Assembly: GCF_000022265.1 (NCBI RefSeq)
Contig: NC_011979.1
Span: 1,110,001 to 1,142,000, forward strand
DNA from: Geotalea daltonii FRC-32
GTDB taxonomy: Bacteria > Desulfobacterota > Desulfuromonadia > Geobacterales > Geobacteraceae
Length of the DNA stretch: 32,000 nt
Direction: 5' to 3'
The notes under the pieces are model-generated. The model did no database searches, was not told the origin of the DNA, and saw only the letters and a list, made by a program, of their open reading frames with translations. This document shows, piece after piece, positions 8,262 through 31,343 of the stretch. A program made the position numbers and the translations under genes. Positions within the stretch are counted from its first letter, which is position 1, and the number at the start of each line of letters is the position of its first letter.

Positions 8262-8442
8262 AAGTCCCCTGTGTAAAAATATTCATATTATAAGGTATTA
8301 ATCTAGATATTGAAACAGGTTTTGTATGTCAGTCAAATTGCAGAAGGTATTTAAGTGTGTGGATGCTTAGATGCAGCACGGCTTGCAACTGGCTTTAGCC
8401 GTGTTACCCTTAAGCATGCGGGAAGAATGTGAGAGGTGGCAA

Positions 8443-8634: not shown

Positions 8635-8641
8635 ATGGGGG

Positions 8642-9232: not shown

Positions 9233-9368
9233 GGCTCCCCCTGCTATGGCTTTATAAGCAAAAGGCTGCTTTCCGTCAAGGAGTTATTGCATGGGGGTAT
9301 TCCAACAGCGCTGGCAGGTAAACCGCTAATCAGAAGGCATCTGCGCCTGTTCACCGGTCTTAAATCCG

Positions 9369-9397
9369 TTGACAGCGCCCGGAATTTTGGCTAATCT
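9369..9397 (+). promoter_or_regulatory. sigma70-like promoter candidate for htrA
   Basis: TTGACA (9369-9374), 17-nt spacer, TAATCT (9392-9397), about 45 nt upstream of the ATG at 9440. Confidence 0.35.
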
Positions 9398-9439
9398 TGC
9401 AGCGTTTGCCAGTCGAAAACCCTTAATGGAGTAGATGCA

Positions 9440-14263: not shown

Positions 14264-16567
14264 ATGGACATGGCCACCGGCTTATTGAAGGAGCAACTGG
14301 AGTACCGCAAGCGCTTCATGGAGAAGATCAATGAGATCCACTCCGCCGCCAACCTGAACAGCATCCTGATACAGCTGAAAGACAGCATTGCCGAGCTGTT
14401 CAAAGCGGAGCGGATGACCATTTATGTGGCAGACCGGCAGCGGAACGTGCTCATTTCCCGGGTCAAATCCGGAGACGAACTGAAGCAGATTGTCGTCCCC
14501 ATCTCGCCGGAAAGCATTGCCGGCTATTGTGCCACGTCACAGCAGTTGATCAATATCACCAATGCATACGACGACCACGAGCTGAAGATGATCAACACCG
14601 GCCTTAAGTTCGACGACACTTGGGATAAGAAAACCGGCTTCCACACGGCGCAGGTGCTCTGCGTGCCGATGATCTTCGACAGCAAGCTGATCGGCGTCAT
14701 GCAGTTGATCAACAAGAAAGGTGCCGCTGCCTTCACCTCCACCGATTTGAGCTATGCCTCGGAGCTGGCAACCTCGCTGTCCATTGCCATCCACAACATC
14801 TATCGCATCAGTGCCTCGGTAAAGATTATCCGCCAAAATTCCCGCTACAATTATCTTCTGGACAAGAACCTGATCGACGAGAAGGACATCCAGAAGGCTT
14901 CAAGCCATCCGGATCTGGCAAAGATCGGTCTCGACCATCTCATCATGCGCGAATTCTCCATTTCCTCCGAGGATATGGCCAAAAGCCTCAGCCTATACTT
15001 CGGTACCGATTTCGTCTGCTTCGACGGCACCCTTCCTCCCCTGGTCGATCTTCTGGAGCGAATCAAGCCTGACCGCCTGAAAAAGGAGCGCTGGATACCG
15101 GTGAAGATTGAAAACGGCGTCCTGCAGGTGGCCATGGAAGATCCCACCGATCTGGCCAAGCAGGACCTGATCAGGTTCGTTTATCCCGAGTACCGCCGCT
15201 TGAGCTTTGTCGGCGCCTATCGCCAGGACATCGACCTCTTCATCGACCACTTCTACAATCTTGGCTCCATGGTGGGGGGCGATTCCTCCACCATCTCCGA
15301 ACTTCTCAACAGGCTTGACACCTCAGACGAGCCGGAAGTGGAGCAGGAGGTACAGAAAGTCTCCGACCAGGATAGCGTCATCGTCCAGCTGGTGAACAAG
15401 ATTGTCTGCGATGCCTACAATGCCAAGGCATCCGATATTCATATCGAACCCTACCCGGGAAAGAATGACGTCCTGGTACGGATCAGGATCGACGGCCGCT
15501 GCAAGATCTATCAGCGCATTCCATATAAATACAAGCATGCCATCACCTCCCGCATCAAGATCATGTCCGGGCTCGACATCGCAGAACGGCGCAAGCCCCA
15601 GGATGGCAAGATCGACTTCAAGAAGTTCGGTCCCATCGACGTGGAACTGCGGGTTGCCACTCTCCCCACCGCCGGCCAGCTGGAAGACGTGGTGCTGAGG
15701 GTACTTGCCTCAGGCGAGCCGATTCCCTTCGACAAGCTGGGCCTTACCTCCCGCAATACCAGGATATTTGAAGAGTCCATCAAGAAACCATACGGTCTGA
15801 TCCTTGTGGTGGGTCCCACCGGCTCGGGCAAGACGACCACCCTGCACTCGGCCGTGGCCCGCATCAACGACCCCGAAACGAAGATCTGGACTGCCGAAGA
15901 CCCGGTGGAGATCACCCAGAAGGGGTTGCGCCAGGTACAGGTCAACTCCCGCATCGGCTTTACCTTTGCCGCCGCCCTGCGCTCATTCCTGCGTGCCGAC
16001 CCGGATGTGATCATGGTCGGGGAGATGCGGGACGCCGAAACGACCTCAACCGGCATCGAGGCTTCCCTCACCGGCCACCTGGTGTTTTCCACACTCCATA
16101 CCAACTCTGCTCCGGAGACAGTCACCAGGCTTCTGGACATGGGGATGGACCCGTTCAGCTTCTCCGACGCCCTCCTCTGTATCCTCGCCCAGCGCCTTGC
16201 CCGCAGGCTCTGTCACGATTGCCGGGAGATCTATATCCCCGAGCAAAGGGAGTTGGACGGAATTATAGAGGAATACGGCGCCGAACACTTTGCCCGGCTT
16301 GGCATGGACAGGGGAGAGATCAAGCTCGCACGGGCCAAGGGATGCGCAAAATGCAATGAAACCGGTTACAAAGGGCGGCTCGGCCTGCACGAGATCCTGG
16401 AGTGCACCGATGCCATGAAGGCCCTCATCAAGCGCAAGGAAGAAGTGGATACCATCCGACGGCAGGCCATAGCCGACGGCATGACCACCCTCAAGCAGGA
16501 CGGCATCCTCAAGGTGTTCCAGGGGCTGACGGACTTAAAAGAAGTCCGCCGGGTCTGCATCAAGTAA
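14264..16567 (+). CDS. GspE/PilB-family secretion ATPase with N-terminal GAF domain
   Basis: 767 aa. Walker A GPTGSGKTTT, Asp box/Walker B DPDVIMVGEMRD, His box GHLVFSTLHTN and a tetracysteine motif (CHDC...CAKC) are present. A central T2SE N-terminal-like segment is present. The first ~170 aa look GAF-like (VLCVPMIFDSKLIGVMQLINK). Confidence 0.9.
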   Translation: MDMATGLLKEQLEYRKRFMEKINEIHSAANLNSILIQLKDSIAELFKAERMTIYVADRQRNVLISRVKSGDELKQIVVPISPESIAGYCATSQQLINITNAYDDHELKMINTGLKFDDTWDKKTGFHTAQVLCVPMIFDSKLIGVMQLINKKGAAAFTSTDLSYASELATSLSIAIHNIYRISASVKIIRQNSRYNYLLDKNLIDEKDIQKASSHPDLAKIGLDHLIMREFSISSEDMAKSLSLYFGTDFVCFDGTLPPLVDLLERIKPDRLKKERWIPVKIENGVLQVAMEDPTDLAKQDLIRFVYPEYRRLSFVGAYRQDIDLFIDHFYNLGSMVGGDSSTISELLNRLDTSDEPEVEQEVQKVSDQDSVIVQLVNKIVCDAYNAKASDIHIEPYPGKNDVLVRIRIDGRCKIYQRIPYKYKHAITSRIKIMSGLDIAERRKPQDGKIDFKKFGPIDVELRVATLPTAGQLEDVVLRVLASGEPIPFDKLGLTSRNTRIFEESIKKPYGLILVVGPTGSGKTTTLHSAVARINDPETKIWTAEDPVEITQKGLRQVQVNSRIGFTFAAALRSFLRADPDVIMVGEMRDAETTSTGIEASLTGHLVFSTLHTNSAPETVTRLLDMGMDPFSFSDALLCILAQRLARRLCHDCREIYIPEQRELDGIIEEYGAEHFARLGMDRGEIKLARAKGCAKCNETGYKGRLGLHEILECTDAMKALIKRKEEVDTIRRQAIADGMTTLKQDGILKVFQGLTDLKEVRRVCIK

Positions 16568-16575
16568 GGCTCCCC

Positions 16576-18567
16576 ATGAAGAATCCTCTCAGGCAAATCG
16601 GCAGCATCCCGGCCCCGGCCTGGCGGGGCCTGATCGGCATGCTCGTCACTGTCCTCATGGTGGTGTTGATGCTCCGCCAGTTCTACCCCCTGGAACTGCT
16701 GGAGATGAAACTTTTCGACACCGGCTTCAAGCTCCGCGGCGCCGTCACCTCTCCCGAAGCTGTCGCCATTGCCGAAATAGACGAAAAAAGCCTGCAGAAA
16801 ATCGGCCGCTGGCCCTGGGATCGGTCAGTGATGGCCCGTCTGGTGGATCGCCTTGCCGAGGCTAATGTCGCCGTCATTGCCTTCGATGTCATTTTTTCGG
16901 AAGCCGATGAAAGCGACCCCCTCTTTGCCAAAGCCATCAGCAGGGCCGGCAATGTCATCCTTCCCATAGTGTTCGATTTTCACGGGTCTCCAGCCGGTAA
17001 ACCGGATCCGCTTCTTGATACCTCCTCCTATAGCAACATTAAAAATCGGCACCTTCTGAATGATTTTGTTCCCCCCTCGGCAAATAGGGTCAATCTCCCT
17101 GTTCCAGCATTGAGCCATGAAGCCATGGGCTTTGGCCACATCAGCATGCTCCCGGACAGCGACGGCACCATGCGCTGGGAGCCGCTCGTCGTCTCCTGCG
17201 GTGGCCGCTACTTTTCCCCCCTTGGGTTGCAGGCGGCAGCCTATTTCCTCGGCGTGCCCCCGGAAAGCATCACCGTCAGGGCAACGGAGTCAGTTACCGT
17301 CGGACAGACTGTCATTCCTACCGATGTCTGGGGACGCACCATCATCAACTATTATGGCCCCGGCGGCTCCTTTCCCCATTATTCCATCAGCGACATCCTC
17401 GACGGTACCGTCCCGGCGAAGCAGCTTGAGAACCGGGTCATCCTGATCGGAGCTACCGCTCCCGGCATCTATGACCTGCGGGTAACCCCCATGGCGGCGG
17501 CCATGCCCGGGGTCGAAAAACATGCCGCCATCGCTGCCTCCATCATAGATCGTTCCTTCATCCGCAAAGTATCTGGTATTGCCGATCTGGCGGTACTTAT
17601 CGGCAGCGGCCTGCTCCTGACACTGATCCTCAGCCGGCGGAAGATCGTCGGTGCCATAACGGCAACGGCTGTAGGTATGCTGGCACTCTTCATCTCCGGC
17701 TACCTGCTCTTCAGCCTGAAGGGCATCTGGCTCAATCTGGCCTATCCCAGCAATAACCTGCTCTTCATCTTCATCGGCGTTACTGCCTTCAACTATGCCT
17801 TCGAGGAGCAGCGGGCCAGGAAAATCAGGGCCATGTTCTCCAACTATGTCACCCGCACCATCGTCAACGAGCTGATTGACAACCCGGAGATGGCGAAGCT
17901 TGGGGGGGAGCGGCGAGAGGTGACGGTGCTGTTCAGCGACCTGGTGGGGTTTACCACCTTTTCCGAGCAGCACTCGCCCGAGGAGGTGGTGGCGATCCTC
18001 AATGAATACCTGGGGGCAATGACCGACGTCATTCTCAAGTGGCAGGGGACCCTGGACAAGTTCATCGGCGACGCCATCGTCGTCTTCTGGGGGGCGCCCC
18101 TGCCGGCGGCGGACCACGCCGAGCGGGCCATCGGCTGCGCCGCGGAAATGGCCAGGGAGATGAAGCGATTGCGGGAAAAGTGGCTGGCGGAGGGAAAAAC
18201 GGCGCTCCACGCCGGCATCGGCATCAATACCGGCGAAGTGCTGGTGGGGAACATCGGCGCCCTGGGCAAGAAGATGGATTACACCGTCATCGGCGACCAG
18301 GTGAATCTTGGCTCCCGGGTGGAATCCCTGACCCGCCACTACCAAGTGCCGATCCTCATCACCGCCAACACCGTAGCCAAGCTCTGCGGTAGGGAGCCGG
18401 ATGTAAGGTTGTCAGGGCTGTCCATCCACGGTATTGAACGGGTGATTGTCAAGGGGAAGGAAGAGCCGGTTGGACTTTACCGCCTGGAGGAACAGCCGGA
18501 CCCCTCCCAGTCCCTTGTTATCGAAGACTGCCCCGAGGGGGCGGTGGTTCGATTTGCGGAGAAATGA
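16576..18567 (+). CDS. CHASE2 sensor domain - transmembrane - class III adenylate/guanylate cyclase
   Basis: ATG at 16576 lies 8 nt after the GspE stop; the track start at 16402 would overlap GspE by 166 nt. The CHASE2 signature is IAEIDEKSLQKIGRWPWDRSVMARLVDRL...IAFDVIFSE. Cyclase motifs are VTVLFSDLVGFT, KFIGDAIVVFWGAP and YTVIGDQVNLGSRVE. Confidence 0.85.
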   Translation: MKNPLRQIGSIPAPAWRGLIGMLVTVLMVVLMLRQFYPLELLEMKLFDTGFKLRGAVTSPEAVAIAEIDEKSLQKIGRWPWDRSVMARLVDRLAEANVAVIAFDVIFSEADESDPLFAKAISRAGNVILPIVFDFHGSPAGKPDPLLDTSSYSNIKNRHLLNDFVPPSANRVNLPVPALSHEAMGFGHISMLPDSDGTMRWEPLVVSCGGRYFSPLGLQAAAYFLGVPPESITVRATESVTVGQTVIPTDVWGRTIINYYGPGGSFPHYSISDILDGTVPAKQLENRVILIGATAPGIYDLRVTPMAAAMPGVEKHAAIAASIIDRSFIRKVSGIADLAVLIGSGLLLTLILSRRKIVGAITATAVGMLALFISGYLLFSLKGIWLNLAYPSNNLLFIFIGVTAFNYAFEEQRARKIRAMFSNYVTRTIVNELIDNPEMAKLGGERREVTVLFSDLVGFTTFSEQHSPEEVVAILNEYLGAMTDVILKWQGTLDKFIGDAIVVFWGAPLPAADHAERAIGCAAEMAREMKRLREKWLAEGKTALHAGIGINTGEVLVGNIGALGKKMDYTVIGDQVNLGSRVESLTRHYQVPILITANTVAKLCGREPDVRLSGLSIHGIERVIVKGKEEPVGLYRLEEQPDPSQSLVIEDCPEGAVVRFAEK

Positions 18568-18865
18568 TTTTTGAAATGATCTCCGTAAATTTTCTACAAA
18601 TAGGTCCACTATTCGCTTTCGAATTTCCAAATATCCATCCTCGATTTTCCATTCTCTCGCTTCGATCCCTAAGTCCGACAGACTCCTAGCTGGCAGAGAT
18701 ATTCACTGACAACAAATAACCCTTCCTACCTTTATTCCTCCATATTTGATCAATTACTAAACCACTAAGTATAAAATTATTTTATTTTAAGAAGTCAAAT
18801 CTTTGAATCAATTCTACATGTTCTGGCAGCATTTAACCTATTGAATTAAAAAGATATTTATAAGT

Positions 18866-18905
18866 ACTGTAAAATATTTTTACAACTGTAAAGAAATTTT
18901 ACAGT
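18866..18905. promoter_or_regulatory. two adjacent palindromes (operator-like) upstream of the giant gene
   Basis: ACTGTAAAA-TAT-TTTTACAAC (18866-18886, 7 of 9 arm positions pair; the core TGTAAAA/TTTTACA at 18868-18884 is perfect). ACTGTAAA-GAAAT-TTTACAGT (18885-18905) has perfect 8-bp arms. Both lie 80-120 nt upstream of the GTG at 18986. Confidence 0.35.
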
Positions 18906-18985
18906 CCATTAATATTGATTTTCTCAGCATTATTGTGTATGCCGTCAAATTAGTTCTAAACCAAATAACCTTACAGGAGGGTGTA

Positions 18986-21900
18986 GTGAAGGGACTCAAA
19001 ACACTCTTTTTCTTTTTGTTCATTCTGATAAGTCATGCTCTGCCGTCTTTTGCAGATACTACGGTAGGAGGTGTCATTTCCACGGATACAACCTGGACTC
19101 TGGCCGGTAGCCCTTATAATGTCACTTCAACTGTTCAGGTGTATGGGACCAGTACCACAGCAGCTACCCTCACCATAGAACCTGGCGTTGTGGTTAAATT
19201 TGCTTCCAATACCGTATTGCAGATAGGAAGTGGTGCCAGTCAGGGAGCACTAATCGCAAAAGGGACGACGACAGAGAGAATTATCTTCACCCGAAGCGGC
19301 ACAACCGGTACATGGGCAGGTCTTACCTATTATGACGGCACTGTGGATGCAACCTCAGTAATCGAAAATGCCGATGTCCAGTACAATAGCGGGTTAAATA
19401 TCACATCTGCTTCGCCTGCTTTCAGAAACTGCACCCTAACTCACATGACGGGCTATGCTAGCTTTTCTAATAGTAATCCTGTGCTGGAGAATGTCGCTAT
19501 TACCAACAACAGCAGCTACGGCATCTACCTCAACTCCTCATCGCCCATCATTACCGGCGGCAGCTTAACCAACACCAGCACCACCGGCCATGGCATTTAT
19601 GGCAGCGGCTCTCCAACATTTTCCAATTACAGCGTCTCCATCGTCAACAGTGCAGGCAAATATGGGCTCTATCAAAGCAGTACGACCTCAGCCCTTAGTG
19701 TTACCAACTCTACCATCGCCAATGGCATTTACCTTGGCTCCACCGGCATCATCCCGACTATCACTGGCAACACCTTCACTAATTTGGATAACTCCCCCCT
19801 TCATGCGGGAGCCAATATCATTGCCCAGATCATCGCCAACAACACCCTGACCGGCCAGACCTTTGCCGGCAAGATCGAGGTGGTAGGCGAGCAGATAAAC
19901 AGGGACACACTGTGGCGGAAACAGATTGCGCCTTATGTGATTTCAGGAGCCATTTACGTATACAAAGATACCATTTCGCCTGCTACTCTGACTATCGAGC
20001 CAGGAACAACAATTAAATTATTTGCAGGCGGTAGCGGGCTATACATAGGAAGTGGTGCCAATCAAGGGGCACTAATCGCAAAAGGGACGACGACGGAAAG
20101 GATTACATTTACCCGGAGCGGCACTAGCGGTACATGGGCAGGCCTTACCTATTATGACGGGGCTGTGGATGCAACATCAGTAATCGAGAATGCCGACATC
20201 CAATATACCACCGGCTTTAGTATCAACTCCGCTTCACCTGTTTTTAGAAACTGCACCATAACAGACATGACGGGCTATGCTAGCTTTTCTAATAGTAACC
20301 CGGTGCTGGAGAATGTCACTCTTACCAACAACGGCAGCTACGGTATCAATCTTTCTGCCTCATCGCCCATCATTACCGGTGGCAGCCTAACCAACACCAA
20401 CACCAACACCACCGGCCATGGTATTTATGGCAACGGGGCACCGGTCATTACGAATTACAATGTCTCTATGGTCAATAGCACTGGCAAGTACGGCCTTTAC
20501 CTGAACAGTTCCACTTCAATGTTGTCAGTCACGAACTCAACCATTGCCAATGGCATCTACCTCGCATCCACCGGCATTACCCCGACCGTTACCGGCAATA
20601 CCTTCACTAATCTGGATAGCTCTCCGATCCATGTAGGGGCGAACATAGTCGGGCAGCTTATAGCCAACAACGCCCTAACTGGCCTTACTTCAGGCGGCAG
20701 AATCGAGATCGTGGGCGAACAGGTGAACCGTAATGTAACCTGGAGCCCACTGGCAGCTCCGTATCACGTGGTCTCCGGCACTGTTTCCGTCTACAACACC
20801 ACGACAACCGCCTCGACCTTGACCATTGCACCGGGAACCGTCATCAAGTTTGCGACCAGCACCGGACTTCAGATCGGCAGTGGCACGAACCAGGGGGCAT
20901 TGATAGCCCAGGGAACACCATCAAATCGTATCACCTTCACCCGAAGCGGCATCAGCGGTACATGGGCAGGCCTTACCTATTATGACGGCACTGTGGATGC
21001 AACATCAGTAATCGAAATTGCCGACATTCAATATACCACCGGCTTTAGTATCAACTCCGCTTCACCTGTTTTTAGAAACTGCACCATAACAGACATGACG
21101 GGCTATGCTAGCTTTTCTAATAGTAACCCGGTGCTGGAGAATGTCACTCTTACCAACAACGGCAGCTACGGTATCAATCTTTCTGCCTCATCGCCCATCA
21201 TTACCGGTGGCAGCTTAACCAATACCAACACCACCGGTCATGGCATTTACGGAAGCGGCTCTCCAACAGTTTCCAATTACAGCGTCTCCATCGTCAATAG
21301 CACTGGCAAGTACGGCCTTTACCTGAACAGTTCCACTTCAATGTTGTCAGTCACGAATTCAACCATTGCCAATGGCATCTACCTCGCATCCACCGGCATC
21401 ACCCCTACCATCACCGGCAATACCTTCAGCAATGGGGATAATTCGCCACCCCATGCAGGGGCTGCCTTGATAAACCGGATTTTGTCTGAAAACACCTTCA
21501 GCGGACTTACCGCAACCGGCAAAATCGAGGTTGTCGGGGAGTATCTGACGCAAAACACTCTTTGGAAGAAGTGGGTAGCACCATATATTGTTCTCGGCAA
21601 TGTCTATGTTTTTAAGGACACCGTCACCACCGCTACCCTGACCATCGATCCGGGAGTCGTGGTGAAATTTAACACAAACACCTCGCTGCAGATTGGTTCG
21701 GGATCTTCCAGGGGGTCCATCATTGCCGATGGAGGGACGGCAGCGATCACCTTTACTTCCAGTCAGGGTACGCCTACTGCCGGAAGCTGGTCGGGTATAA
21801 CCTTCTCCGGTGACTCTGCCAGCGGCAGTATATTGAATAACATTGTCGTCGAATACGGAGGCTCAGGAGGGTACTACAATAACGCAAACGTTGTCTTTAA

Positions 21901-24391
21901 TTCTTCTTCGCCAGTGATCCGTAATTCCACAATCAGAAACAGTGCCGGAAGCGGCATCTATGTATATGGTGCACAAAACATCCCTCAGGTGGTTGGTTGC
22001 ACGGTTACAGCCAACAAGTGGGGTGTTTATGCCACTTCTTCAAACCCTTACATCGTCAATTCACGAATCTACGGCAATTCCACCGCAGGTGTATGGAACA
22101 GTTCCACGACTGTAGATGTTGACGCAAGAAATAATTGGTGGGGGGCAGACTCCGGACCAACCCATGCAAGCAACCCTTCCGGCACCGGCAACAGCGTCAG
22201 CGACAAGGTACTCTACAATCCTTGGATTGGCCAGACTCCAGGGACTGGAGTGACTTTCAGCAATGTCAAGGTTTCGCCAGCAGCGTTCAATCCTGATGGG
22301 GATTATCTCACCTTCGGGGCATTCATCTCCGCCAATGCCAACTGGACCATCACTATCACCGACAGCGGAAATAACGTCGTCAGAATTTTCACCGGCTCCG
22401 GCACTTCCATCAGTCAGAGATGGTTTGGCGAAGACAGCCAGTCTGTGAAAGTAGCGGATGGAAATTATACCTACAAGATAGAAGCGGTAAATCCTGCGAC
22501 TTTGGAAGCGGCCTCTCCCTTACAAGGAACCGTAAAGGTATTCCGCCAACTTCCTGTGGCCATTCTCGATGTGCCGACTGATGATCAGATCTTTTCCGGC
22601 GGGACCATCGTCAATGTTACCGGCACCGCCTCCGATCCTACCGATTTCAAGAACTACACCCTTGAGTATGGGGCAGGAGACAACCCGATTTCCTGGAGTG
22701 CCCTTAGGAGCGCAACAGTTCCAGTGCAAGGTAACCTTTTGTATGCCTGGGACCTCACCAATGCCACTGGAGGCGTATACACCCTGCGCCTCACCGTCAC
22801 CGATAATGCCGGGAATGCAACAGTAAAAGCGGCACGCATCAGGCTCCTCTGGATTCAGAATGCAAATTCGTCGGAGACTTACCTTTCACCGAACGGCGAT
22901 GGTACCAAGGATTCGTCGCTACTTAGCGCGACGGCCAGCTACCCGGTCAATTGGTCCGTAACGTTAAGCAACTCAACCGGTACTGTAGTGAGGACTTTTA
23001 CTATGCCGGGAAGTTCTTCCTTCAGCCAGACTTGGGACGGCCGGGATTCAGGAAATGTTGTTGTTCCTGACGGCACATACACCTATACGTTTAATGCCCT
23101 TGATCCTGTGTCCTTACTTGGAGCTTCTCCCAAAACAGGTAACATAAAGGTAGATAGTACGCTGCCCACTGTTTCCGTAACGGCGCCATTTCCCGGCGGA
23201 ATGCTGCAGAACACCGTAACCATCACCGGAACGGCAGCGGATACCAATTTGGATAACTACACAGTGGAGTATGGGTTAGTGTCGAGTGCAGGGGCGTGGA
23301 CTCTCCTTGCTTCATCGGGCACGCCAGTTACCTCTGGCACTCTGGCCGTCTGGATAACCAATGATCTTAAGAACGTGGTCAAGCTGCAAAATGGTGACTA
23401 TCAGCTCAGATTGACTGCTGTGGATAAGGCGGGAAATAGCTCCATAACCACTATCCCGGTAACGGTGGATAATCTTATTCTTTCATCCATATCAGTCAGC
23501 CGGAACACCTTAAACACAGCTTTAGGTGAATCAACAACCATCCCGTTCACCATCAACCGCTCGGGTACTGTGACGCTGAATGTCATACCCGAGAAACTCG
23601 GCTCCAATGGCACTCCCGTATATCAAGCCTCAATAAACTGTCTTGCAGCCGGCAACTATGCCTTTACCTGGAACGGCGCCGACTCGACCGGTAAAACAGT
23701 ACCAGATGAAGCATATCTTTATATCCTGAATGCTGTCGACGGAACAAGAACCGACGGCTACTCTCCGCCATATCCGAACGGCCCCGGAAGTGTCACCTGT
23801 ACCCAGAGCACGTATAACCCTCTGAAGAATCTGCCCATGACGGTGACATATACTCCGTCGCTGCCATCTCGGATCAATATGAGCATTGCCTGGGGAACCA
23901 AAAGGTACAAGATGATGGATGCAGTGCCGACATTGGCAACAACCGGCACCTTTGATTGGTTCGGAATGGACCCTGCCCAGCAAATAATGGCCAATGGCGC
24001 TTTTGCAACCTGCACGGTTGCATCGCTTCTGCCGGAAAACTTCCTGATGACTATTGGAGACATGCCCAAAGTGACCATGTTGAAAACAGACCCTTATGAA
24101 ATTTCGCTTTCATATGGGCAGTTCACCAGAATAGAATACACAGTTTCCAGGGAATCGAATGTAACCATCAAGGTTGTCTCCCCAAGTGGTATTGCGGCAA
24201 CTCTGCAAAATAATCTGCTTCAGCCGGCAGGTACTTATGAAATGGAATGGACACTTGCCGATCTTAGTGATGCATTCGGGAAGAACTTTGCTGTATCGGA
24301 AGAGGGGGATTATGCTGTCAGCATACATGCGACCAATCCCGTTACCGGCACTTACTCAATCACAAAAGGCAACCTTAGGGTCGGGCTTTGA
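18986..24391 (+). CDS. giant secreted protein: four right-handed parallel beta-helix (CASH/NosD-like) modules followed by FlgD-Ig-like and Ig-like beta-sandwich modules
   Basis: GTG at 18986 lies 6 nt after AGGAGG. Signal peptide is VKGLKTLFFFLFILISHALPSFA|DT. Repeated beta-helix rungs are present (NCTIT, NSNPVLENV, SSPIITGG, NSTIANGIYL) with an NNWWG cap. FlgD-Ig-like blocks are present (FNPDGDY..., LSPNGDGTKD...WDGRDSGNVVVPDGTYTY). Confidence 0.8.
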   Translation: MKGLKTLFFFLFILISHALPSFADTTVGGVISTDTTWTLAGSPYNVTSTVQVYGTSTTAATLTIEPGVVVKFASNTVLQIGSGASQGALIAKGTTTERIIFTRSGTTGTWAGLTYYDGTVDATSVIENADVQYNSGLNITSASPAFRNCTLTHMTGYASFSNSNPVLENVAITNNSSYGIYLNSSSPIITGGSLTNTSTTGHGIYGSGSPTFSNYSVSIVNSAGKYGLYQSSTTSALSVTNSTIANGIYLGSTGIIPTITGNTFTNLDNSPLHAGANIIAQIIANNTLTGQTFAGKIEVVGEQINRDTLWRKQIAPYVISGAIYVYKDTISPATLTIEPGTTIKLFAGGSGLYIGSGANQGALIAKGTTTERITFTRSGTSGTWAGLTYYDGAVDATSVIENADIQYTTGFSINSASPVFRNCTITDMTGYASFSNSNPVLENVTLTNNGSYGINLSASSPIITGGSLTNTNTNTTGHGIYGNGAPVITNYNVSMVNSTGKYGLYLNSSTSMLSVTNSTIANGIYLASTGITPTVTGNTFTNLDSSPIHVGANIVGQLIANNALTGLTSGGRIEIVGEQVNRNVTWSPLAAPYHVVSGTVSVYNTTTTASTLTIAPGTVIKFATSTGLQIGSGTNQGALIAQGTPSNRITFTRSGISGTWAGLTYYDGTVDATSVIEIADIQYTTGFSINSASPVFRNCTITDMTGYASFSNSNPVLENVTLTNNGSYGINLSASSPIITGGSLTNTNTTGHGIYGSGSPTVSNYSVSIVNSTGKYGLYLNSSTSMLSVTNSTIANGIYLASTGITPTITGNTFSNGDNSPPHAGAALINRILSENTFSGLTATGKIEVVGEYLTQNTLWKKWVAPYIVLGNVYVFKDTVTTATLTIDPGVVVKFNTNTSLQIGSGSSRGSIIADGGTAAITFTSSQGTPTAGSWSGITFSGDSASGSILNNIVVEYGGSGGYYNNANVVFNSSSPVIRNSTIRNSAGSGIYVYGAQNIPQVVGCTVTANKWGVYATSSNPYIVNSRIYGNSTAGVWNSSTTVDVDARNNWWGADSGPTHASNPSGTGNSVSDKVLYNPWIGQTPGTGVTFSNVKVSPAAFNPDGDYLTFGAFISANANWTITITDSGNNVVRIFTGSGTSISQRWFGEDSQSVKVADGNYTYKIEAVNPATLEAASPLQGTVKVFRQLPVAILDVPTDDQIFSGGTIVNVTGTASDPTDFKNYTLEYGAGDNPISWSALRSATVPVQGNLLYAWDLTNATGGVYTLRLTVTDNAGNATVKAARIRLLWIQNANSSETYLSPNGDGTKDSSLLSATASYPVNWSVTLSNSTGTVVRTFTMPGSSSFSQTWDGRDSGNVVVPDGTYTYTFNALDPVSLLGASPKTGNIKVDSTLPTVSVTAPFPGGMLQNTVTITGTAADTNLDNYTVEYGLVSSAGAWTLLASSGTPVTSGTLAVWITNDLKNVVKLQNGDYQLRLTAVDKAGNSSITTIPVTVDNLILSSISVSRNTLNTALGESTTIPFTINRSGTVTLNVIPEKLGSNGTPVYQASINCLAAGNYAFTWNGADSTGKTVPDEAYLYILNAVDGTRTDGYSPPYPNGPGSVTCTQSTYNPLKNLPMTVTYTPSLPSRINMSIAWGTKRYKMMDAVPTLATTGTFDWFGMDPAQQIMANGAFATCTVASLLPENFLMTIGDMPKVTMLKTDPYEISLSYGQFTRIEYTVSRESNVTIKVVSPSGIAATLQNNLLQPAGTYEMEWTLADLSDAFGKNFAVSEEGDYAVSIHATNPVTGTYSITKGNLRVGL
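19067..21535 (+). repeat. three in-frame tandem repeats of 819/828/822 bp inside the giant gene
   Basis: Units start at 19067, 19886 and 20714; the degenerate fourth module starts at 21536. 20201-20386 and 21029-21214 are identical over 186 bp by my base-by-base reading. Confidence 0.9.
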
Positions 24392-24451
24392 TTTGAAATG
24401 GTTGAAATATACTATAACCATATGATGAGACATACAATGTGGAGATATTAA

Positions 24452-25156
24452 ATGAGGATGATTGGAATCAAGATAATATTATTTATTTTGCTCTGGCTGG
24501 CCTTTGCCTCTTTGACTTCTGTCACGCCTGCTTATGCAGTTACTCCCTGTCAGAGTATCCAGCAGCAGGTAGACTTGTATTTGAATAACCCCCCAAGCAT
24601 ATATTGCAAATACACTCCCGAGTTCGGGGAGTCGGAAGTAAAGATTTGGCGGGATTGTGATTATCGGCCGGCAGCTATTAAAACAGTTACCTATTCACCT
24701 GGCACTATAAATTATACCCAAAGTGGTACAGTAACCTGTTGCTATCCGGACCGTAACTGCTATCTTCCTGAGAATCAATATAAAGATACCTATACGAACA
24801 CTTATTACAAGACCATTGTAAAGAATGAATACTGTGATGGACACATTACAACCAATGAATATTCATACGGTATGAATTGGATATATAACTATGCTTCATA
24901 CACTGGATATTGTGCTACCCCTGGCAGTAGCAATTTACAGACTTATGTTGTGCCTCAACATGAGGATTCTGCGGCATATTGTGCGTCTCAAGTAACGCGC
25001 TATCTCTATACCACCATATCCATTCCGGCTAATTGTAATGACTGTTATGATTCTTCCGACCCCTGTTGCGGCAGCACCGATAAATGTTGTGGCAAGGGCC
25101 CCTGTTGTGGTGATCCCTGCTGTGGTGATGTCTGCTGCCAGAACCAAGGGGAATAG
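24452..25156 (+). CDS. secreted Cys/Tyr-rich protein with C-terminal (CC-x3-4)5 tail; unknown family
   Basis: GGAGA RBS 6 nt upstream. Signal peptide ends PAYA|VTPCQ. The mature part has 21 Cys, and the tail is PCCGSTDKCCGKGPCCGDPCCGDVCCQNQGE. It lies 60 nt after the giant gene and 68 nt before the RHS gene. Confidence 0.7.
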   Translation: MRMIGIKIILFILLWLAFASLTSVTPAYAVTPCQSIQQQVDLYLNNPPSIYCKYTPEFGESEVKIWRDCDYRPAAIKTVTYSPGTINYTQSGTVTCCYPDRNCYLPENQYKDTYTNTYYKTIVKNEYCDGHITTNEYSYGMNWIYNYASYTGYCATPGSSNLQTYVVPQHEDSAAYCASQVTRYLYTTISIPANCNDCYDSSDPCCGSTDKCCGKGPCCGDPCCGDVCCQNQGE

Positions 25157-25224
25157 AACAATGATGGAAATTGCCTGATTTAATGTTGACCATGAAATTG
25201 AAATGAGATTCAGGAGGTTATCAA

Positions 25225-28200
25225 ATGCTCAGATGGTCAAAGAATTTTTCTCATAGTTTTTGTTTTCTTTTAACAATTACATCACTGTCGGTGTTTCCTG
25301 TTTGTGCCCATGCAGGAACGGATGCGAAAAGTGCCGACGAAGCCGCTATCCAAGCTCTCAGCGCAGAAGGCAGCGATGCTGGCACCAACAATCCCGCCTA
25401 TGCCGGCAAACCTGTAAGTCTAAATGGCGGTGCAGAAACATTTCAACGGACAGACCTGACCTTAGGCAATCTGTTACCCATCAGCATCAAGCGCCGTTAC
25501 AACAGCAAATCAGGTTATGACAGCCCCTCCGGCTACGGCTGGGCGCACAACTACGACAAGCGCCTGTACACCTATTCCGACGGATCAGTAGTCATTCGCA
25601 AAGAGACCGGCTGGAAGCGTCAGTTTACTCCATCAGGAGTAGGATTTATCACCCCTGTCGGTGAGACCGGAATCCTTACCATCAACCAAGACGGCAGCTA
25701 CACCTATACGGAAAAAGACGGCGGCAAAGAACTTTATGATCCGAAGGGCCGTTTAGTGAAAATGACAGATCCCAATGGGAGTTACCTGATTCTCAGCTAC
25801 GAATCTGCCACCAGGTTCAGTCTGTGGGGCCTCCTTCCTTGGAATATCAATCAGACGAATCCCCTGAAGGTCGCCTATGACTATCATCTGAGCAGGATCG
25901 ATGAATTCACCCCCTCCGGAACCACCACCGGCGCATGGGTCACCTTCCAGTACGACACATCTACCGGCAGGCTTACCAGCATCAGTGACAGCCTGGGAAG
26001 AAACGTCACCTATGGGTACGACACCATCGGCAACCTTGCCTCAGTTGTCACGCCCCTTAGCTCCGCCCAGTATGCATACACAGACCCCACCAACAAGCAC
26101 CTGATGACCACGGTCGACGAAGGAGACGGCCCTTATGCAAACACCTACGACAAGGCCGGACGAGTCGTTCGCCAGACCCACGGCACAGGGCAGATCGACA
26201 TCGAATACACCGTCCCCAGAAAAACAACCAAAGTCACCACCACCATAAAAGATGGCACCGGTCTGTTGCTCAATACCAACATCCGCACCGTCGAGTTCGA
26301 CGACAATGGCCAGGTAGCCAAAGAAACAGACACATTGGGCAACGTGACCACATATATCCGTAATCAACAGACCTGGATCACCCGCAAAGAGCAGTGGGAG
26401 AATACCGGCACCATAGCCAGTCCGACGCTCGTACTGAAAGCAGCCATAAATTATACCTACGACAGCATCGGCAATGTACTTACCAGCACTCAGGCGCCGG
26501 GCACACCCCAAGAAAAGCAAGCTATCTATACCTACGACCCCACCTTCAATCATCAAACCAGCGAAAGCGCAGCCAGCGTCGTCAACCCGGCAATCAGCAA
26601 GATAACCAGCCATACTTACGACAGCAAAGGCAATCGCCAGAGCACCACCGAGACCGGCCTGCTCGGAGATGGCACCCCATACAGCTACGCCACTACCTAT
26701 GAAAACGATGCCAATGGCAGAGTGACAAGGATCGACGGCCCCCGCACCGACGTGCAGGACGTCACTACCTTTACCTATGACGCCAACGGCAATATGCTGA
26801 CAAAGACCGAAGCCTTAATCGGCACCACCCGTTATGACAACTACGACGCCCTGGGCAACCCAGGCACCATTACCGATCCAAACGGCAATGCCACCACCTA
26901 CACCTATGACACCGCAGGCAGGGCACTATTCGTCAAAGCCCCCGGAGACATAAACCCCACCGAATACACCTATACCACCGGCGGGTGTGGCAGCTGCGGC
27001 GGATCAACCAACCGCATCGCCTCCATCATCCAGCCCGAAGGAAACCGTATCGACTATACCTATGACACCAACGGCAAACTGACCAAGATTGCCGATAGCC
27101 AGAATAACAGCATCAACTACAGCTACGACAGCGAAGGGAACAAACTGAAAGAAGAGATCAAAGATCCGTCAGGCATCCTGCAAAAGACCATCAGCTACCA
27201 ATACGACGTCATCAACCGCCTCAAGCAGATCAAAAACCCCGATGCCACCTACACCGAATTCGGCTACGACGCCCTCGGCAACCGAACCAGCAGCAAAGAC
27301 CCCAAACAAAACCTGACCACCAGCCAGTACGACGCCCTGAGCCGCCTCACCGCCACCATCCAGCCCGGCAATGTCACCACCGGCTTCACTTACGATACAA
27401 ATAACAACCTGACCACCGTAACCGACGCCAACAGCAACAGCACCACCTACAAATACGACGATCTGGGCAGGGTCTACCAGACCATCTCCCCTGATACCAA
27501 CACCACCACCTACAGTTATGACCCTGCAGGCAATCTCAAAACCAAGACCGACGCAAAAGGCATTATCATTGCTTACACCTACGACGACGCCAATAGGCTC
27601 ACCAGAACAAGCTTCCCCACAGACCCCGCCATCACCTACAGCTACGACACCTGTATAAATGGCAAGGGAAGAGTCTGCACCATCACCGACCAGAGCGGCA
27701 CAACCACCTACGAGTACACCAAGAAGGGACAGATAGCCAAAGAGACCAGAACCATCGACGGCATTGCCTACATCACCCAGTACACCTACGACATGAACGG
27801 CAACACGAAAACGATCATCTACCCGAGCGGCAGGGTTATCACCTACAGCTACAGCAACGACAAGCCTACCACCGTCAGCAGTACCTACGCAGGCATAACC
27901 ACCACAATAGCAAACAACATAAGTTACAAACCCTTCGGCGGGATGACAGCACTTACCTACGGCAACGGTTTAGCAAGAACCATCACCTACGACAACCAGT
28001 ACCGCATCAGCACCATGATTACCGGCACCCTGCAAAACCTCACTTACGGCTACGACGCCAACGGCAACATCACCGCTATCACCAATACTCTCGACAATAC
28101 CAAGAACAAGAGTTATACCTACGACAGCCTCGACCGGCTCGGCAGCGGCACCGGCCCATGGGGCACCATCACCTGGACATATGACGGCGTCGGCAACAGG

Positions 28201-29271
28201 CAAACCCAGATCGACAGCAGCGGCACCAGCAGCTACAGCTATCAGTCCGGCAGCAACAGGCTAACAGGAATCACAGGAGCAAACCCAGCAACCTTCGGCT
28301 ACGACACCAACGGCAACACAGCAACTGAAAACGGCAAGATCTACACCTATAACCAGAATCAGCGATTGATCCAGGCAGCAGCAAATGAGACCGGCAGCTA
28401 CAGTTACAACGCCCAGGGCCAACGCACCAAGAAGACCGTCAATGGCGTCACCACCTATTTCATCTTCGACCAGCAAGGGCAACTGTTAACCGAATCAGCC
28501 ACCAATGGCACACAAGCGGAATACATCTACCTGAGCAACCAGCCACTGGCCAAGATCGACGCCACCGGCACGAACTATGTCCACACCGATCATCTGGGCA
28601 CGCCTACCATGATGACCGATGCGGCCGCAACAAAAGTTTGGGAGATAGAGGCCAGACCATTCGGGGACAGTGCAAACATTACCGGCACAGCCTCTCTTAA
28701 TCTTCGCTTCCCAGGCCAGTACGCAGATAGTGAATCAGGGTTAAACTACAATTACTTCAGGGATTACAATCCAGGCATTGGTAGGTATATCCAAGCTGAT
28801 CCGGTTGGGCTAGATGAGGGCGTCACTCTGTTCATTTATTCTGGTAACGATCCCATTTTGAACGAAGATCCTCTAGGTTTGTGGGTAAAAAGGTGTTCGA
28901 GAGCACTTGGGAATAAAAATAAACCTAAGACTTCCAAATACAACCCTTTAAGGCATGACTACTTGAGTGTAAGCGGTACATTCGTTGGATTTCAGAGGGG
29001 TAGCAACATGCTTTGGAGTAAAGGAAGGGTAGATGTAGGTAAGGATAAAGAAGAAGATAACGGCAAATGCCATACTACAATTTGTAGTGATGACAGATTC
29101 GATAAGTATGTTATGGCGTTTGTGGACTATGCTCCAACTTATTGCATAGCAGCTAACCCAGACACAATACAACATGCTGCTGGTGCCAGAAACTGCCAAA
29201 CTTGGGCAGATACAGTTATAAAAAAGGCAAAAGAGAATTACAGAAAGAATGAAACCTGCCCAAAGTGCTAA
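25225..29271 (+). CDS. RHS/YD-repeat protein with N-terminal Sec signal peptide and C-terminal polymorphic toxin domain
   Basis: AGGAGG RBS. Signal peptide ends CAHA|GTD. Dozens of YD repeats follow the pattern YxYDxxGNxxxxxD. The RHS-associated core end reads PGQYADSESGLNYNYFRDYNPGIGRYIQADPVGL...NEDPLGL. Confidence 0.92.
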   Translation: MLRWSKNFSHSFCFLLTITSLSVFPVCAHAGTDAKSADEAAIQALSAEGSDAGTNNPAYAGKPVSLNGGAETFQRTDLTLGNLLPISIKRRYNSKSGYDSPSGYGWAHNYDKRLYTYSDGSVVIRKETGWKRQFTPSGVGFITPVGETGILTINQDGSYTYTEKDGGKELYDPKGRLVKMTDPNGSYLILSYESATRFSLWGLLPWNINQTNPLKVAYDYHLSRIDEFTPSGTTTGAWVTFQYDTSTGRLTSISDSLGRNVTYGYDTIGNLASVVTPLSSAQYAYTDPTNKHLMTTVDEGDGPYANTYDKAGRVVRQTHGTGQIDIEYTVPRKTTKVTTTIKDGTGLLLNTNIRTVEFDDNGQVAKETDTLGNVTTYIRNQQTWITRKEQWENTGTIASPTLVLKAAINYTYDSIGNVLTSTQAPGTPQEKQAIYTYDPTFNHQTSESAASVVNPAISKITSHTYDSKGNRQSTTETGLLGDGTPYSYATTYENDANGRVTRIDGPRTDVQDVTTFTYDANGNMLTKTEALIGTTRYDNYDALGNPGTITDPNGNATTYTYDTAGRALFVKAPGDINPTEYTYTTGGCGSCGGSTNRIASIIQPEGNRIDYTYDTNGKLTKIADSQNNSINYSYDSEGNKLKEEIKDPSGILQKTISYQYDVINRLKQIKNPDATYTEFGYDALGNRTSSKDPKQNLTTSQYDALSRLTATIQPGNVTTGFTYDTNNNLTTVTDANSNSTTYKYDDLGRVYQTISPDTNTTTYSYDPAGNLKTKTDAKGIIIAYTYDDANRLTRTSFPTDPAITYSYDTCINGKGRVCTITDQSGTTTYEYTKKGQIAKETRTIDGIAYITQYTYDMNGNTKTIIYPSGRVITYSYSNDKPTTVSSTYAGITTTIANNISYKPFGGMTALTYGNGLARTITYDNQYRISTMITGTLQNLTYGYDANGNITAITNTLDNTKNKSYTYDSLDRLGSGTGPWGTITWTYDGVGNRQTQIDSSGTSSYSYQSGSNRLTGITGANPATFGYDTNGNTATENGKIYTYNQNQRLIQAAANETGSYSYNAQGQRTKKTVNGVTTYFIFDQQGQLLTESATNGTQAEYIYLSNQPLAKIDATGTNYVHTDHLGTPTMMTDAAATKVWEIEARPFGDSANITGTASLNLRFPGQYADSESGLNYNYFRDYNPGIGRYIQADPVGLDEGVTLFIYSGNDPILNEDPLGLWVKRCSRALGNKNKPKTSKYNPLRHDYLSVSGTFVGFQRGSNMLWSKGRVDVGKDKEEDNGKCHTTICSDDRFDKYVMAFVDYAPTYCIAANPDTIQHAAGARNCQTWADTVIKKAKENYRKNETCPKC
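28882..29268 (+). other. 129-aa C-terminal toxin domain of the RHS protein (after DPLGL, residues 1220-1348)
   Basis: It begins right after the DPLGL motif (28867-28881). The DNA turns AT-rich here, unlike the RHS core. It contains RHDYLSVSG and ARNCQTWAD (His-then-Cys order) plus CHTTIC and CPKC. Confidence 0.7.
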
Positions 29272-29281
29272 CGGAGGAACA

Positions 29282-29704
29282 ATGGCAGAAATTAAAGAAC
29301 TAATACTTGCTTTGTTTTTTGCACAAACTATTATACTGACCCAATCACCAATTTCAATCAGTGAAAATTGGACAGATGTGCCACTCAACAAGCCGTTAAA
29401 GGTAATAAATGAAGGTGCAACATTGTATGTAGATGTTACAGAAATATCGAAACTAGAAAGAAATATAGAAAAACTAGATAAGATGTTCCCAAAACATTGT
29501 CTTATTGCGATATTGCAAGACAAAAATGGACAGAGTTTCACTTTTATGAACGAAAGTGCCTACTCGTTTACCAATAAGAACACTTCACTCATATTAGTCA
29601 GCAGTAGCAGGCTAGATAAAAAAACACCGTTTATCAAGCTGAAAGTCAAAAGTTCTGTCAGGTTAAAAAATGTCAAAATTAGTTGGTCTAACTACGAGAA
29701 GTAA
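29282..29704 (+). CDS. candidate cognate immunity protein (140 aa) with N-terminal hydrophobic segment
   Basis: ATG at 29282 is preceded by GGAGG, 10 nt after the RHS stop. It has the same AT-rich composition as the toxin domain. The N-terminus is MAEIKELILALFFAQTIILTQSP. The position is typical of RHS immunity genes. Confidence 0.55.
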   Translation: MAEIKELILALFFAQTIILTQSPISISENWTDVPLNKPLKVINEGATLYVDVTEISKLERNIEKLDKMFPKHCLIAILQDKNGQSFTFMNESAYSFTNKNTSLILVSSSRLDKKTPFIKLKVKSSVRLKNVKISWSNYEK

Positions 29705-29724: not shown

Positions 29725-29750
29725 CCTGTAAAATCGTTTGTGTAAATGGC
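29725..29750. repeat. IS256-family left inverted repeat
   Basis: CCTGTAAAATCGTTTGTGTAAATGGC compared with the reverse complement of the right end, CCTGTAAATAATTTTGTGTAAATGGC. Confidence 0.75.
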
Positions 29751-29784
29751 CATATTCGGTTATCACCAACCGAAGGAGAAACTG

Positions 29785-31000
29785 ATGGCCACTACCGACG
29801 AACTGCTTGATGCACTGATGAAAGACTACAAGAAGCCCGAAGACCTAATTGGCGAGAATGGGCTTCTGAAACAACTGACCAAGAAGCTGCTGGAGCGGGC
29901 AATGCAGGCCGAGATGACCGAGCATCTAGGCTACGAGAAGCACGCCCCCAACGGAGCCAACAGCGGTAACTCCCGCAATGGCAGCTACAAGAAGACGGTC
30001 AAAGGAGATTTCGGCAACCTTGAAATGACAGTCCCTCGGGACCGCCAGTCATCCTTCGAGCCGATCATCGTCCCCAAAGGAGAGAGCCGCTTTACCGGCT
30101 TCGATGACAAGATCATCTCCATGTATGCCCGTGGCATGACCACGCGGGATATTCAGGGGCACCTGGAGGAAATCTACGGTGTAGAAGTCTCCCCAACCCT
30201 GGTATCACAGGTCACCCAAGCCGTTACCGAAGAAATTACCCTATGGCAGAATCGCCCGCTTGATGACGTGTACCCGATCATGTACCTCGATGCCGTGCGG
30301 GTTAAAGTCAGGCACGAAGGACGGGTGATCAACAAAGCTGTTTACCTGGCCATTGCCGTTACCTTCACCGGGGTCAAAGAAAGTCCTCGGCATGTGGACT
30401 GCCGAAACCGAGGGTGCCAAGTTCTGGCTCCAGGTAGTTACGGAACTGAAGAACCTAGGCGTCAAGGACATCTTCATCGCCTGCGTCGATGGACTCAAAG
30501 GCTTCCCTGAGGCCATCGAAGCGGTATTTCCTAAAACCCAGGTTCAGCTCTGCATCGTCCACATGGTGCGCCACAGCCTGAATTACGTGTCCTGGAAGCA
30601 GCGCAAGGAAGTTGCCGACGATCTGAAGCAGATCTACCAGGCAGCAACCCTGCAGCAGGCCGAAGCGAATCTGGAAGCATTCGAAACCAAGTGGAGTGCC
30701 ACCCATCCGACCATCGGCAAATCGTGGTGCAGGAACTGGGAGCGGATCATTCCCTTCTTCTCCTATCCGCCTGAAATCCGGAAAGCCATTTATACAACCA
30801 ACGCCATAGAATCGCTGAACATGTCGCTGCGGAAGGTCACCAAGAACCGGGCATCATTCCCAAACGACGAAGCTATGCTGAAACTGCTCTACCTAGCCCT
30901 GAAGAACATCGAGAAAAAGTGGACTATGCCGATCAGAGACTGGAAATCGGCACTCAACCAGTTCACCATTATGTTTGAAGAAAGAATGCCTGCTCTTTAA
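29785..31000 (+). pseudogene. IS256-family transposase split into two frames by a +1 frameshift
   Basis: The N-terminal part MATTDELLDALMKDYKKPEDLIGENGLLKQLTKKLLERAMQAEMTEHLGYEKH... runs in the frame of 29746..30510. The C-terminal part ...KKVLGMWTAETEGAKFWLQVVTELKNLGVKDIFIACVDGLKGFPEAI... runs in the next frame (30353..31000). Removing one G from GGGG at 30370-30373 would join them as AVTFTG-SKKVLGMW. Confidence 0.75.
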
Positions 31001-31007
31001 ACCGAAA

Positions 31008-31033
31008 GCCATTTACACAAAATTATTTACAGG
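31008..31033. repeat. IS256-family right inverted repeat
   Basis: GCCATTTACACAAAATTATTTACAGG is the reverse-complement partner of 29725-29750. Confidence 0.75.
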
Positions 31034-31100
31034 ACCCCCCAGCGGGTTTCACTTTTTTCCTAAAAACAACTTTGTCGATTTAATAATTCCTTTCCTGGTT

Positions 31101-31343
31101 GTGTGGGCTGCCTCCTTTGTTTATACCGGCATAATAGGCGGGATACTTTGGATGCCTTTACATAAATTTAAATCAGACAACATTCTAACATACATCCTTA
31201 TTGCCATTGTATTCACATCTTTATTGTCACTTGGCACGAATCATGGTGTATCGCTATTGGGGATAGGCATGAGTTCAACAAATGCAATAATGATAAGATT
31301 GCTAGAAATTAAGATATTCAAACTCAGTAATAAAGCCACCTGA
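31101..31343 (+). CDS. small hydrophobic (2-3 TM) ORF; true start uncertain and possibly truncated by the IS
   Basis: The frame is open from inside the IS (30975) to 31343. The part outside the IS (31034 onward) has no convincing RBS; the first in-frame start outside the IS is GTG at 31101. An open frame of about 100 codons in very AT-rich DNA is unlikely by chance. Confidence 0.25.
   Translation: MWAASFVYTGIIGGILWMPLHKFKSDNILTYILIAIVFTSLLSLGTNHGVSLLGIGMSSTNAIMIRLLEIKIFKLSNKAT

Follow-up and report, generated by a model that had tools for sequence, protein, structure and literature searches.

The 32,000-nucleotide (nt) stretch of Geotalea daltonii FRC-32 DNA analysed here (the window) hosts four plus-strand open reading frames (ORFs), located at 18986..24391, 24452..25156, 25225..29271 and 29282..29704 and separated by gaps of 60, 68 and 10 nt. 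They encode, in this order, a giant protein with beta-helices and immunoglobulin (Ig)-like domains, a cysteine-rich protein, an RHS protein ending in a putative toxin tip, and a candidate immunity protein. The first three are predicted to be secreted, and the four genes are described below as a probable Sec-dependent RHS toxin-immunity module carrying two accessory proteins. An earlier interpretation made from the letters and the ORFs (the sequence-only reading) had set out the same four genes on one strand with the same gaps, and the ORF coordinates bear this out. The 234-residue cysteine-rich protein is identical in sequence to Geob_1033 from Geotalea (Geobacter) daltonii FRC-32, a diderm species that belongs to the family Geobacteraceae. 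Ribosome-binding sites of the GGAGG type precede positions 18986, 25225 and 29282. The longest ORF for the giant protein begins at 18935; the GTG at 18986 is the favoured start because a GGAGG is found seven bases before it, and because it fits the N-termini of the orthologues. No terminator-like hairpin was predicted on the plus strand inside the module.

The shell part of the RHS protein, Geob_1034, is encoded at 25225..28881 on the plus strand, and includes a signal peptide (amino acids (aa) 1-30), a DUF6531 plug (aa 61-131, 3.5e-17), RHS repeats (PF05593 RHS_repeat in 13 stretches, 1.1e-75; TIGR01643, 8e-49) and the RHS core TIGR03696 (aa 1144-1219, 69.4 bits against a cut-off of 32.5), which ends with NEDPLGL at residue 1219. 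The autoprotease motif PxxxxDPxGL is found at the end of the core, as ...NDPILNEDPLGL|W. DUF6531 is the sole match within residues 1-158, and the mature N-terminus is, as far as domain matches tell, essentially the plug, with no trafficking domain of its own. The core is followed by the putative polymorphic C-terminal toxin tip (aa 1220-1348; 28882..29271, plus strand), 129 residues long and including 7 cysteines. Searches of the tip against Pfam and PDB sequences gave no match up to E<=10, and an AlphaFold2 (AF2) single-sequence model (pLDDT 40) was too poor for fold assignment. A relationship to LRAT/NlpC-P60-like enzymes, considered for a His...NC motif, was discarded, as BLASTP against an approximate human PLA2G16 sequence gave no support and Pfam and PDB returned nothing. 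The candidate immunity gene (29282..29704, plus strand) starts 10 nt past the RHS stop with its own GGAGG, and encodes 140 aa with a hydrophobic N-terminal segment that match nothing in the family libraries. In all, domain searches with hidden Markov models (HMMs) found Beta_helix, FlgD_ig, RHS_repeat and TIGR03696, in line with the names given to the giant and RHS proteins in the sequence-only reading, and assigned no family to the cysteine-rich and 140-aa proteins.

The toxin tip and the 140-aa protein are not conserved in orthologous loci. The G+C content of the tip (40.1%) and of the downstream gene (33.3%) is lower than that of the shell (53.2%) and of the flank (54.3%), as is typical of toxin/immunity cassettes that have been exchanged. 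In the related locus L011 a tip matching DUF4329/Tox-JAB-2 above the Pfam cut-off lies beside an immunity protein with a lipoprotein signal (LTSC lipobox); in L018 a tip with a weak PLA2-like motif lies beside a multi-pass membrane immunity protein; in L003 the tips are hydrophobic and of the glycine-zipper type. These features, together with the seven cysteines of the window's own tip and the hydrophobic N-terminal segment of its candidate immunity protein, suggest that the toxins act on the cell envelope. The four genes thus described very probably include a Sec-type RHS toxin-immunity module. The alternative that the module is a teneurin-like device for adhesion or kin recognition, in which the RHS shell would be displayed on the giant adhesin and the tip would be a signal or inert, looks improbable. 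It accords with the absence of a toxin family match for the tip, with components that are all extracellular and rich in adhesion-type domains, and with the teneurins as a precedent for non-toxic YD shells (PMC3482391). The wholesale swapping of tip and downstream gene between orthologous loci, their very low G+C content and the recognisable toxin tips of the related loci all speak against it.

Signal peptides were judged by reading the sequences by eye, and those of the giant (MKGLKTLFFFLFILISHALPSFA|DT, cleavage at SFA|DT), cysteine-rich (...SVTPAYA|VT) and RHS (...VFPVCAHA|GT) proteins all look like classical type I. In the RHS protein, basic residues R3 and K6 are followed by a hydrophobic core and by AHA|G at residues 28-31. 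The AXA-type signal peptides noticed early on for the first three genes are hence confirmed by inspection, and the same pattern recurs at four other loci, in the orthologues of the giant and of the RHS protein.

A signal peptide on an RHS protein, in the absence of any other secretion marker, is the mark of the Sec/'T2SS' class (T2SS, type II secretion system) of Zhang et al. 2012, and is what is found here. Table 1 of that survey lists signal-peptide RHS toxins as 'T2SS/Sec-dependent' for all bacteria, and the survey describes lineage-specific N-terminal domains, architectures combining an inactive transglutaminase, Ig domains and RHS, and the accessory gene MafA located upstream of MafB toxins (PMC3482391). 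The premise that Sec-dependent RHS proteins are a matter of monoderms was accordingly overstated, and a Sec-signal RHS in a diderm is not new in itself. Parts of a secretion system of type VI (T6SS) or of other known routes are missing around the module: the sizeable ORFs of the 32-kb window gave no PAAR, VgrG, Hcp, TcA/TcB/SpvB, TpsB or LXG/WXG element, and no vgrG, hcp or Eag chaperone gene was found in the window or in the related loci. Domain searches of the window and of the RHS N-terminus agree on this point with what had been concluded from the letters. The RHS protein lacks the PAAR/prePAAR or VgrG-binding domain that marks T6SS Rhs effectors, and carries the signal peptide that those lack; likewise, no Pfam domain of the RHS or giant proteins corresponds to the SpvB/TcB beta-propeller or to the TcA-type partner that mark Tc toxins. 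The system would be independent of the T6SS, and the cysteine-rich and giant proteins may act in export, or else in targeting or display.

Most of the Rhs toxins that have been characterised in the best-studied diderms are effectors of the T6SS. The RHS protein could in principle be the cargo of a T6SS encoded elsewhere in the genome, its neighbours being irrelevant to delivery; T6SS components have been reported in Geobacteraceae (PMC3543383), and the search for such genes covered only the window and the related loci. This explanation is nonetheless very unlikely. The type I signal peptide of the RHS protein is conserved in all five loci, and would direct it away from the cytoplasm, the site of T6SS loading. 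No PAAR, prePAAR, VgrG-binding or chaperone domain was found, and the related loci encode immunity proteins that belong to the envelope. T2SSs of both the Gsp and the Pul type have been described in Geobacteraceae (PMC3543383). The window hosts a GAF-MshEN-T2SSE ATPase gene at 14264..16567, a lone secretion/pilus-type ATPase with no other gene for a T2SS or a type IV pilus in the window. It was discarded as machinery of the module, as it stands outside any T2SS operon, and an AT-rich spacer lies between it and the module. A CHASE2 adenylate/guanylate cyclase gene follows the ATPase gene and lies just upstream of the module (region 14264-18567); the GTG start listed for the cyclase ORF, at 16402, falls within the ATPase gene, and the true start probably lies further downstream.

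The cysteine-rich protein Geob_1033 (24452..25156, plus strand; 234 aa) features, after its signal peptide, a beta-rich domain in which 7 cysteines are invariant, and ends in a tail where (D)PCCG is repeated three times. It matches no family in Pfam or NCBIfam. A profile search of 1.84 billion cluster representatives returned 12 matches at E<=1e-3, and about six of these (P0001, P0006, P0007, P0008, P0010, P0014) cover the whole domain; library-wide HMM E-values for the family range from 2e-59 to 8e-5. Adding four homologues that are 46-53% identical to Geob_1033, the family numbers about 9-10 members. Free-standing homologues of Geob_1033 showing this degree of identity come from Geobacter-type genomes and metagenomes. 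Family alignments share the motifs CQ..QQ, IWRDCD, YCDGH and IP..C and an invariant cysteine pattern; proteins of the Geob_1033/Geob_1037 type (see below for Geob_1037) combine these with the signal peptide and the linkage or fusion to DUF6531-RHS sequences. The family is very rare and was previously unannotated. Its range is very narrow (Geobacteraceae and a few sediment metagenomes), and the generality of what is described here is therefore limited. Scans of genomes and metagenomes with the family alignment gave no loci beyond those already known, and tblastn of the cysteine-rich protein against plasmids gave nothing relevant. A word-indexed protein search with broader alignments missed the fused proteins described in the next paragraph, though their contigs could be retrieved. 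An AF2 model built on a 5-sequence alignment reached a pLDDT of 71 and a pTM of 0.38, and a Foldseek comparison of it with PDB gave nothing below E 0.07. The remaining matches of the profile search have in common with the family the low-complexity PCCG tail only. Three of them, P0009, P0011 and P0012, are otherwise unrelated proteins of no family with long arrays of a PCCGS[ST][DN] repeat (more than 25 copies in one), of which the tail of the cysteine-rich family is a miniature.

The cysteine-rich domain is found fused to RHS sequences in three relatives. In P0008, P0010 and P0014, signal peptide, cysteine-rich domain, DUF6531 and RHS repeats are all located in a single chain, the cysteine-rich domain coming directly after the signal peptide. 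P0014 is complete (1476 aa), and has two FlgD_ig-like repeats between the cysteine-rich domain and DUF6531; hhalign matched the family to it with a probability of 98% and E 2.5e-13. In the fused forms the order is signal peptide, cysteine-rich domain, sometimes Ig repeats of the FlgD_ig type, a short cysteine-containing linker (for example D-C-D-D-P-C-A-C-N) and DUF6531. FlgD_ig repeats precede DUF6531 in other related RHS proteins also. The (D)PCCG tail that closes the split proteins occupies a position equivalent to the linker of the fused forms, and in split loci the mature RHS protein starts almost directly with the plug. The contig encoding P0008 carries AspS and IDH genes that cluster, at 90% identity or more, with those of Trichlorobacter species; P0008 hence comes from a Trichlorobacter-like genome, and fused and split forms coexist within Geobacteraceae. 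Since the same domain is fused after the signal peptide in three relatives, the cysteine-rich protein corresponds to the N-terminal module of the RHS protein supplied in trans. The simplest reading is that this module was split off and now works in trans. A similar duality is known for PAAR, of which both Rhs-fused and stand-alone versions exist.

Free-standing genes for the cysteine-rich protein set in readable context were found in five split loci, the window, L002, L004, L009 and L011. The order is the same in all (5/5): a giant gene of the Beta_helix/FlgD_ig type, the cysteine-rich gene, and a signal-peptide RHS gene, with spacers of 52-84 nt between the first two and of 60-81 nt between the second and the third. 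Wherever the context of a free-standing homologue can be read, a signal-peptide RHS gene follows directly downstream. The role of RHS partner proposed for the cysteine-rich protein from the letters is thus borne out by synteny in the five split loci and by the three fusions, and the protein is in all likelihood a dedicated partner, though slightly less surely so than the module is of the toxin-immunity kind. In an all-against-all ORF comparison the giant, cysteine-rich and RHS genes were the only ones common to the split loci. Flanking genes all vary: the window has a cyclase gene and an insertion sequence (IS), L004 has ilv genes, and the genes of L011 and L002 encode a resolvase, Dam or a recombinase. 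The module probably rides on a mobile block of three genes, two of them for accessory secreted proteins.

Two observations concern the RHS genes of these loci. An orphan RHS C-terminal fragment is found in L003 at 7896-9428 (corresponding to L002:14780-16312), downstream of the full-length RHS gene and with a different glycine-zipper-like tip of its own; it is a typical spare cassette for the replacement of tips by recombination. At L002:10802-13207, annotations in ENA place two minus-strand genes inside a plus-strand RHS gene which is intact by tblastn and 100% identical to that of L003. The RHS gene is hidden from precomputed annotations by this gene-calling artefact.

The giant protein (18986..24391, plus strand; 1801 aa) is organized as a signal peptide, beta-helices, an Ig-like array and a C-terminal region of no family. 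The right-handed beta-helix comes in 4 segments (PF13229 Beta_helix, 1e-33, with a NosD match); the first three are repeats of about 290 aa each, 69-71% identical to each other, and the fourth is NosD-like. Past the helices are two FlgD_ig domains (8e-19), PKD/Big-like Ig domains and a beta-rich tail with no family. The sole match to PDB sequences was the Ig domain of FlgD. The protein was also considered as a substrate of the type IX secretion system, as it matches CHU_C and TIGR04131; the matches fall at aa 1297-1371 of 1801. Being internal and overlapping a FlgD_ig domain, the CHU_C match is no sorting signal, and the idea was rejected. A tblastn search with the C-terminal 701 residues against plasmids gave nothing relevant.

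Giant orthologues, sharing 57-72% identity, are found upstream of every free-standing cysteine-rich gene set in readable context. The giant protein is linked to the cysteine-rich/RHS pair by a tie that is real, and weaker than that of the cysteine-rich protein. It is a probable, unproven partner of the RHS protein, and the chances that it is a functional one are about even. The partnership proposed in the sequence-only reading is supported in one respect, the giant gene being present in all five split loci with unrelated flanks, and weakened in another, as the gene is missing from both readable fused-type loci, L018 and L019. The contrary idea, that the system consists of the RHS-immunity pair and the cysteine-rich adaptor, the giant being an independent hitch-hiker on the island that acts on surfaces or exopolysaccharides, is the less likely of the two, and is still a possibility to be reckoned with. 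Large beta-helix/Ig surface proteins are generic, no domain of the giant is specific to RHS, and its phylogenetic grouping is unlike that of the RHS gene. The same gene is nonetheless co-oriented 52-84 nt upstream of the cysteine-rich gene in five of five split loci that otherwise share no genes, and this synteny holds in spite of a 28-43% divergence of the giant sequences. Furthermore, FlgD_ig repeats that are found in cis in fused RHS proteins occur also in the giant (30-40% identity).

We favour the interpretation that this module, found in a diderm, is a Sec-dependent polymorphic toxin-immunity system of the RHS type, carried on a mobile block with two accessory secreted proteins; the probability of roughly 60% that we assign to it is a compromise between claims held with unequal confidence, a scheme of assembly and delivery included. 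The individual steps of this scheme are held with much lower confidence than the claims on the module and its partners. The giant, cysteine-rich and RHS proteins would all reach the periplasm via Sec, where disulfide bonds would form in the cysteine-rich protein, and the three would then be released through some general pathway, for example a T2SS or vesicles. Outside, the cysteine-rich protein might dock on the plug end of the RHS protein and join the shell to the giant, which may act as a polysaccharide-binding adhesin or as a display scaffold on the surface of producer or target cells. The toxin tip, freed from the shell by the DPxGL autoprotease, would attack the envelope of the target cell, and the 140-aa downstream protein would shield the producer. 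A more specific version, in which the three secreted proteins assemble extracellularly into a T6SS-independent tripartite RHS toxin complex, with the giant as a carrier that binds receptors or cuts polysaccharides, the cysteine-knotted protein as adaptor and the RHS protein as payload container, is doubtful. If true, such a complex would be the counterpart of Tc toxins in bacterial warfare, and would account for the way in which Sec-exported RHS toxins of diderms locate target cells and get into them.

Several observations weigh against the favoured module with its two accessory proteins. The partnership of the giant, cysteine-rich and RHS proteins is a proposal made from gene order and fusions, and the toxin and immunity functions are assigned from position only. 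L018 and L019, the two readable fused-type loci, feature housekeeping neighbours in place of the giant, which is hence dispensable for at least some RHS proteins having the cysteine-rich domain; more distant FlgD_ig-RHS loci similarly lack it. The giant of the window is closest to that of L011 (72%), yet the RHS proteins of the two loci are only 38% identical. Correspondingly, giants from the window and L011 group apart from those of L002, L004 and L009, whereas RHS shells from the window, L002 and L004 group apart from those of L009 and L011. These discordant groupings denote recombination and no strict co-evolution. Finally, all five split loci come from Geobacter-like genomes, and the synteny may therefore be due in part to shared ancestry of the island.

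The module may be compared with known systems. The toxins of the Sec/'T2SS' class similarly have a signal peptide, an N-terminal domain limited to one lineage, in some cases Ig domains, and an RHS shell with a tip that varies; an immunity gene, for which the module has a candidate, lies downstream, and there is no marker of a dedicated secretion system (PMC3482391). The module differs from them in that its N-terminal domain belongs to a previously undescribed cysteine-rich family, and in that Geobacter-type loci encode this domain separately, beside a conserved beta-helix protein of 1800 aa. The MafA-MafB pair of Neisseria is likewise a diderm system with a signal-peptide toxin, a genus-restricted N-terminal module and an obligatory upstream accessory gene (PMC3482391). 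The two are unrelated in sequence, and MafB lacks the RHS shell; MafA is a lipoprotein, whereas the signal peptide of the cysteine-rich protein is of type I and lacks a lipobox. WapA (Bacillus subtilis, Streptococcus suis) is another Sec-exported RHS/YD toxin, with a plug of the DUF6531 type, a tip that is polymorphic and its own immunity protein, but is wall-associated in monoderms, while the producer of the module has an outer membrane and the partners are encoded upstream. Tc toxins (TcA and TcB-TcC) are similar in outline, in that an RHS cocoon holding the toxin goes with a very large, separate receptor-binding protein. The module has no TcA, SpvB or TcB beta-propeller, and the giant, all-beta throughout its helix and Ig parts, shows nothing like a pore-forming helical channel. 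The two would resemble each other by functional analogy only. The Rhs effectors of the T6SS (PAAR-Rhs; RhsA, Tse5, Tse15) share with the module shell, plug, core autoprotease motif and toxin/immunity logic; the module has a signal peptide in place of the PAAR, prePAAR or clade domain, and no vgrG, hcp or chaperone gene nearby.

The cysteine-rich domain family, the duality of split and fused forms and the conserved giant neighbour appear to be new, and full-text literature searches returned no paper on the genes of the Geob_1033 region or on a module of this kind. Signal-peptide RHS toxins of Gram-negative bacteria have been catalogued since 2012. The locus supplies testable candidates for the problem of how they exit the cell and enter targets without a T6SS or a Tc translocator, namely the cysteine-rich family and the conserved adhesin-like giant. 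Gene fusion ties the cysteine-rich domain to the RHS N-terminus, which justifies interaction and deletion experiments, and Geotalea daltonii is a cultured isolate.

Upstream of the module, an AT-rich spacer of 418 nt (18568..18985, plus strand; 31.6% G+C) is a probable promoter/leader on the basis of its composition. Promoter-like hexamers are no more frequent in it than expected by chance, and no Rfam family was matched in the leader or anywhere in the window. The giant gene has a G+C content of 50.4% and the cysteine-rich gene of 43.1%. The region had been regarded as compositionally foreign; on these values, and on those given above for shell, tip, immunity gene and flank, this holds only in part.

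The sequence-only reading, correct in its description of the module, had overlooked two features located downstream. The candidate immunity gene is adjoined by an insertion sequence of the IS256/Mutator family (29725..31033, plus strand), with imperfect inverted repeats of 26 nt; its transposase is encoded in two overlapping ORFs, 29746..30510 and 30353..31000, as a result of frameshift or decay. No target-site duplication was found. The 8-mers that flank the element, TAAACGAG and ACCCCCCA, are different from each other, and this suggests that the IS mediated a rearrangement and was not simply inserted. The end of the IS cuts a plus-strand ORF (31035..31343) encoding the C-terminal 100 residues or so of a multi-pass membrane protein that matched no family. 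It may be a decapitated immunity gene, a remnant of a lost second toxin cassette. The other feature is a second gene of the cysteine-rich family, Geob_1037 (31451..>32000, plus strand), which runs past the end of the window and is complete on L013 (3675-4355). The encoded protein, 226 aa long, is 38% identical to Geob_1033 and has the same PCCG tail. There is no giant or RHS gene adjacent to Geob_1037, and the next ORF on L013 opens as a transposase-like sequence (VADHQKLGSYPWSGH...). Taken with the IS and the membrane-protein fragment, this orphan paralogue indicates that the island probably once held a second module, which has since been broken up.

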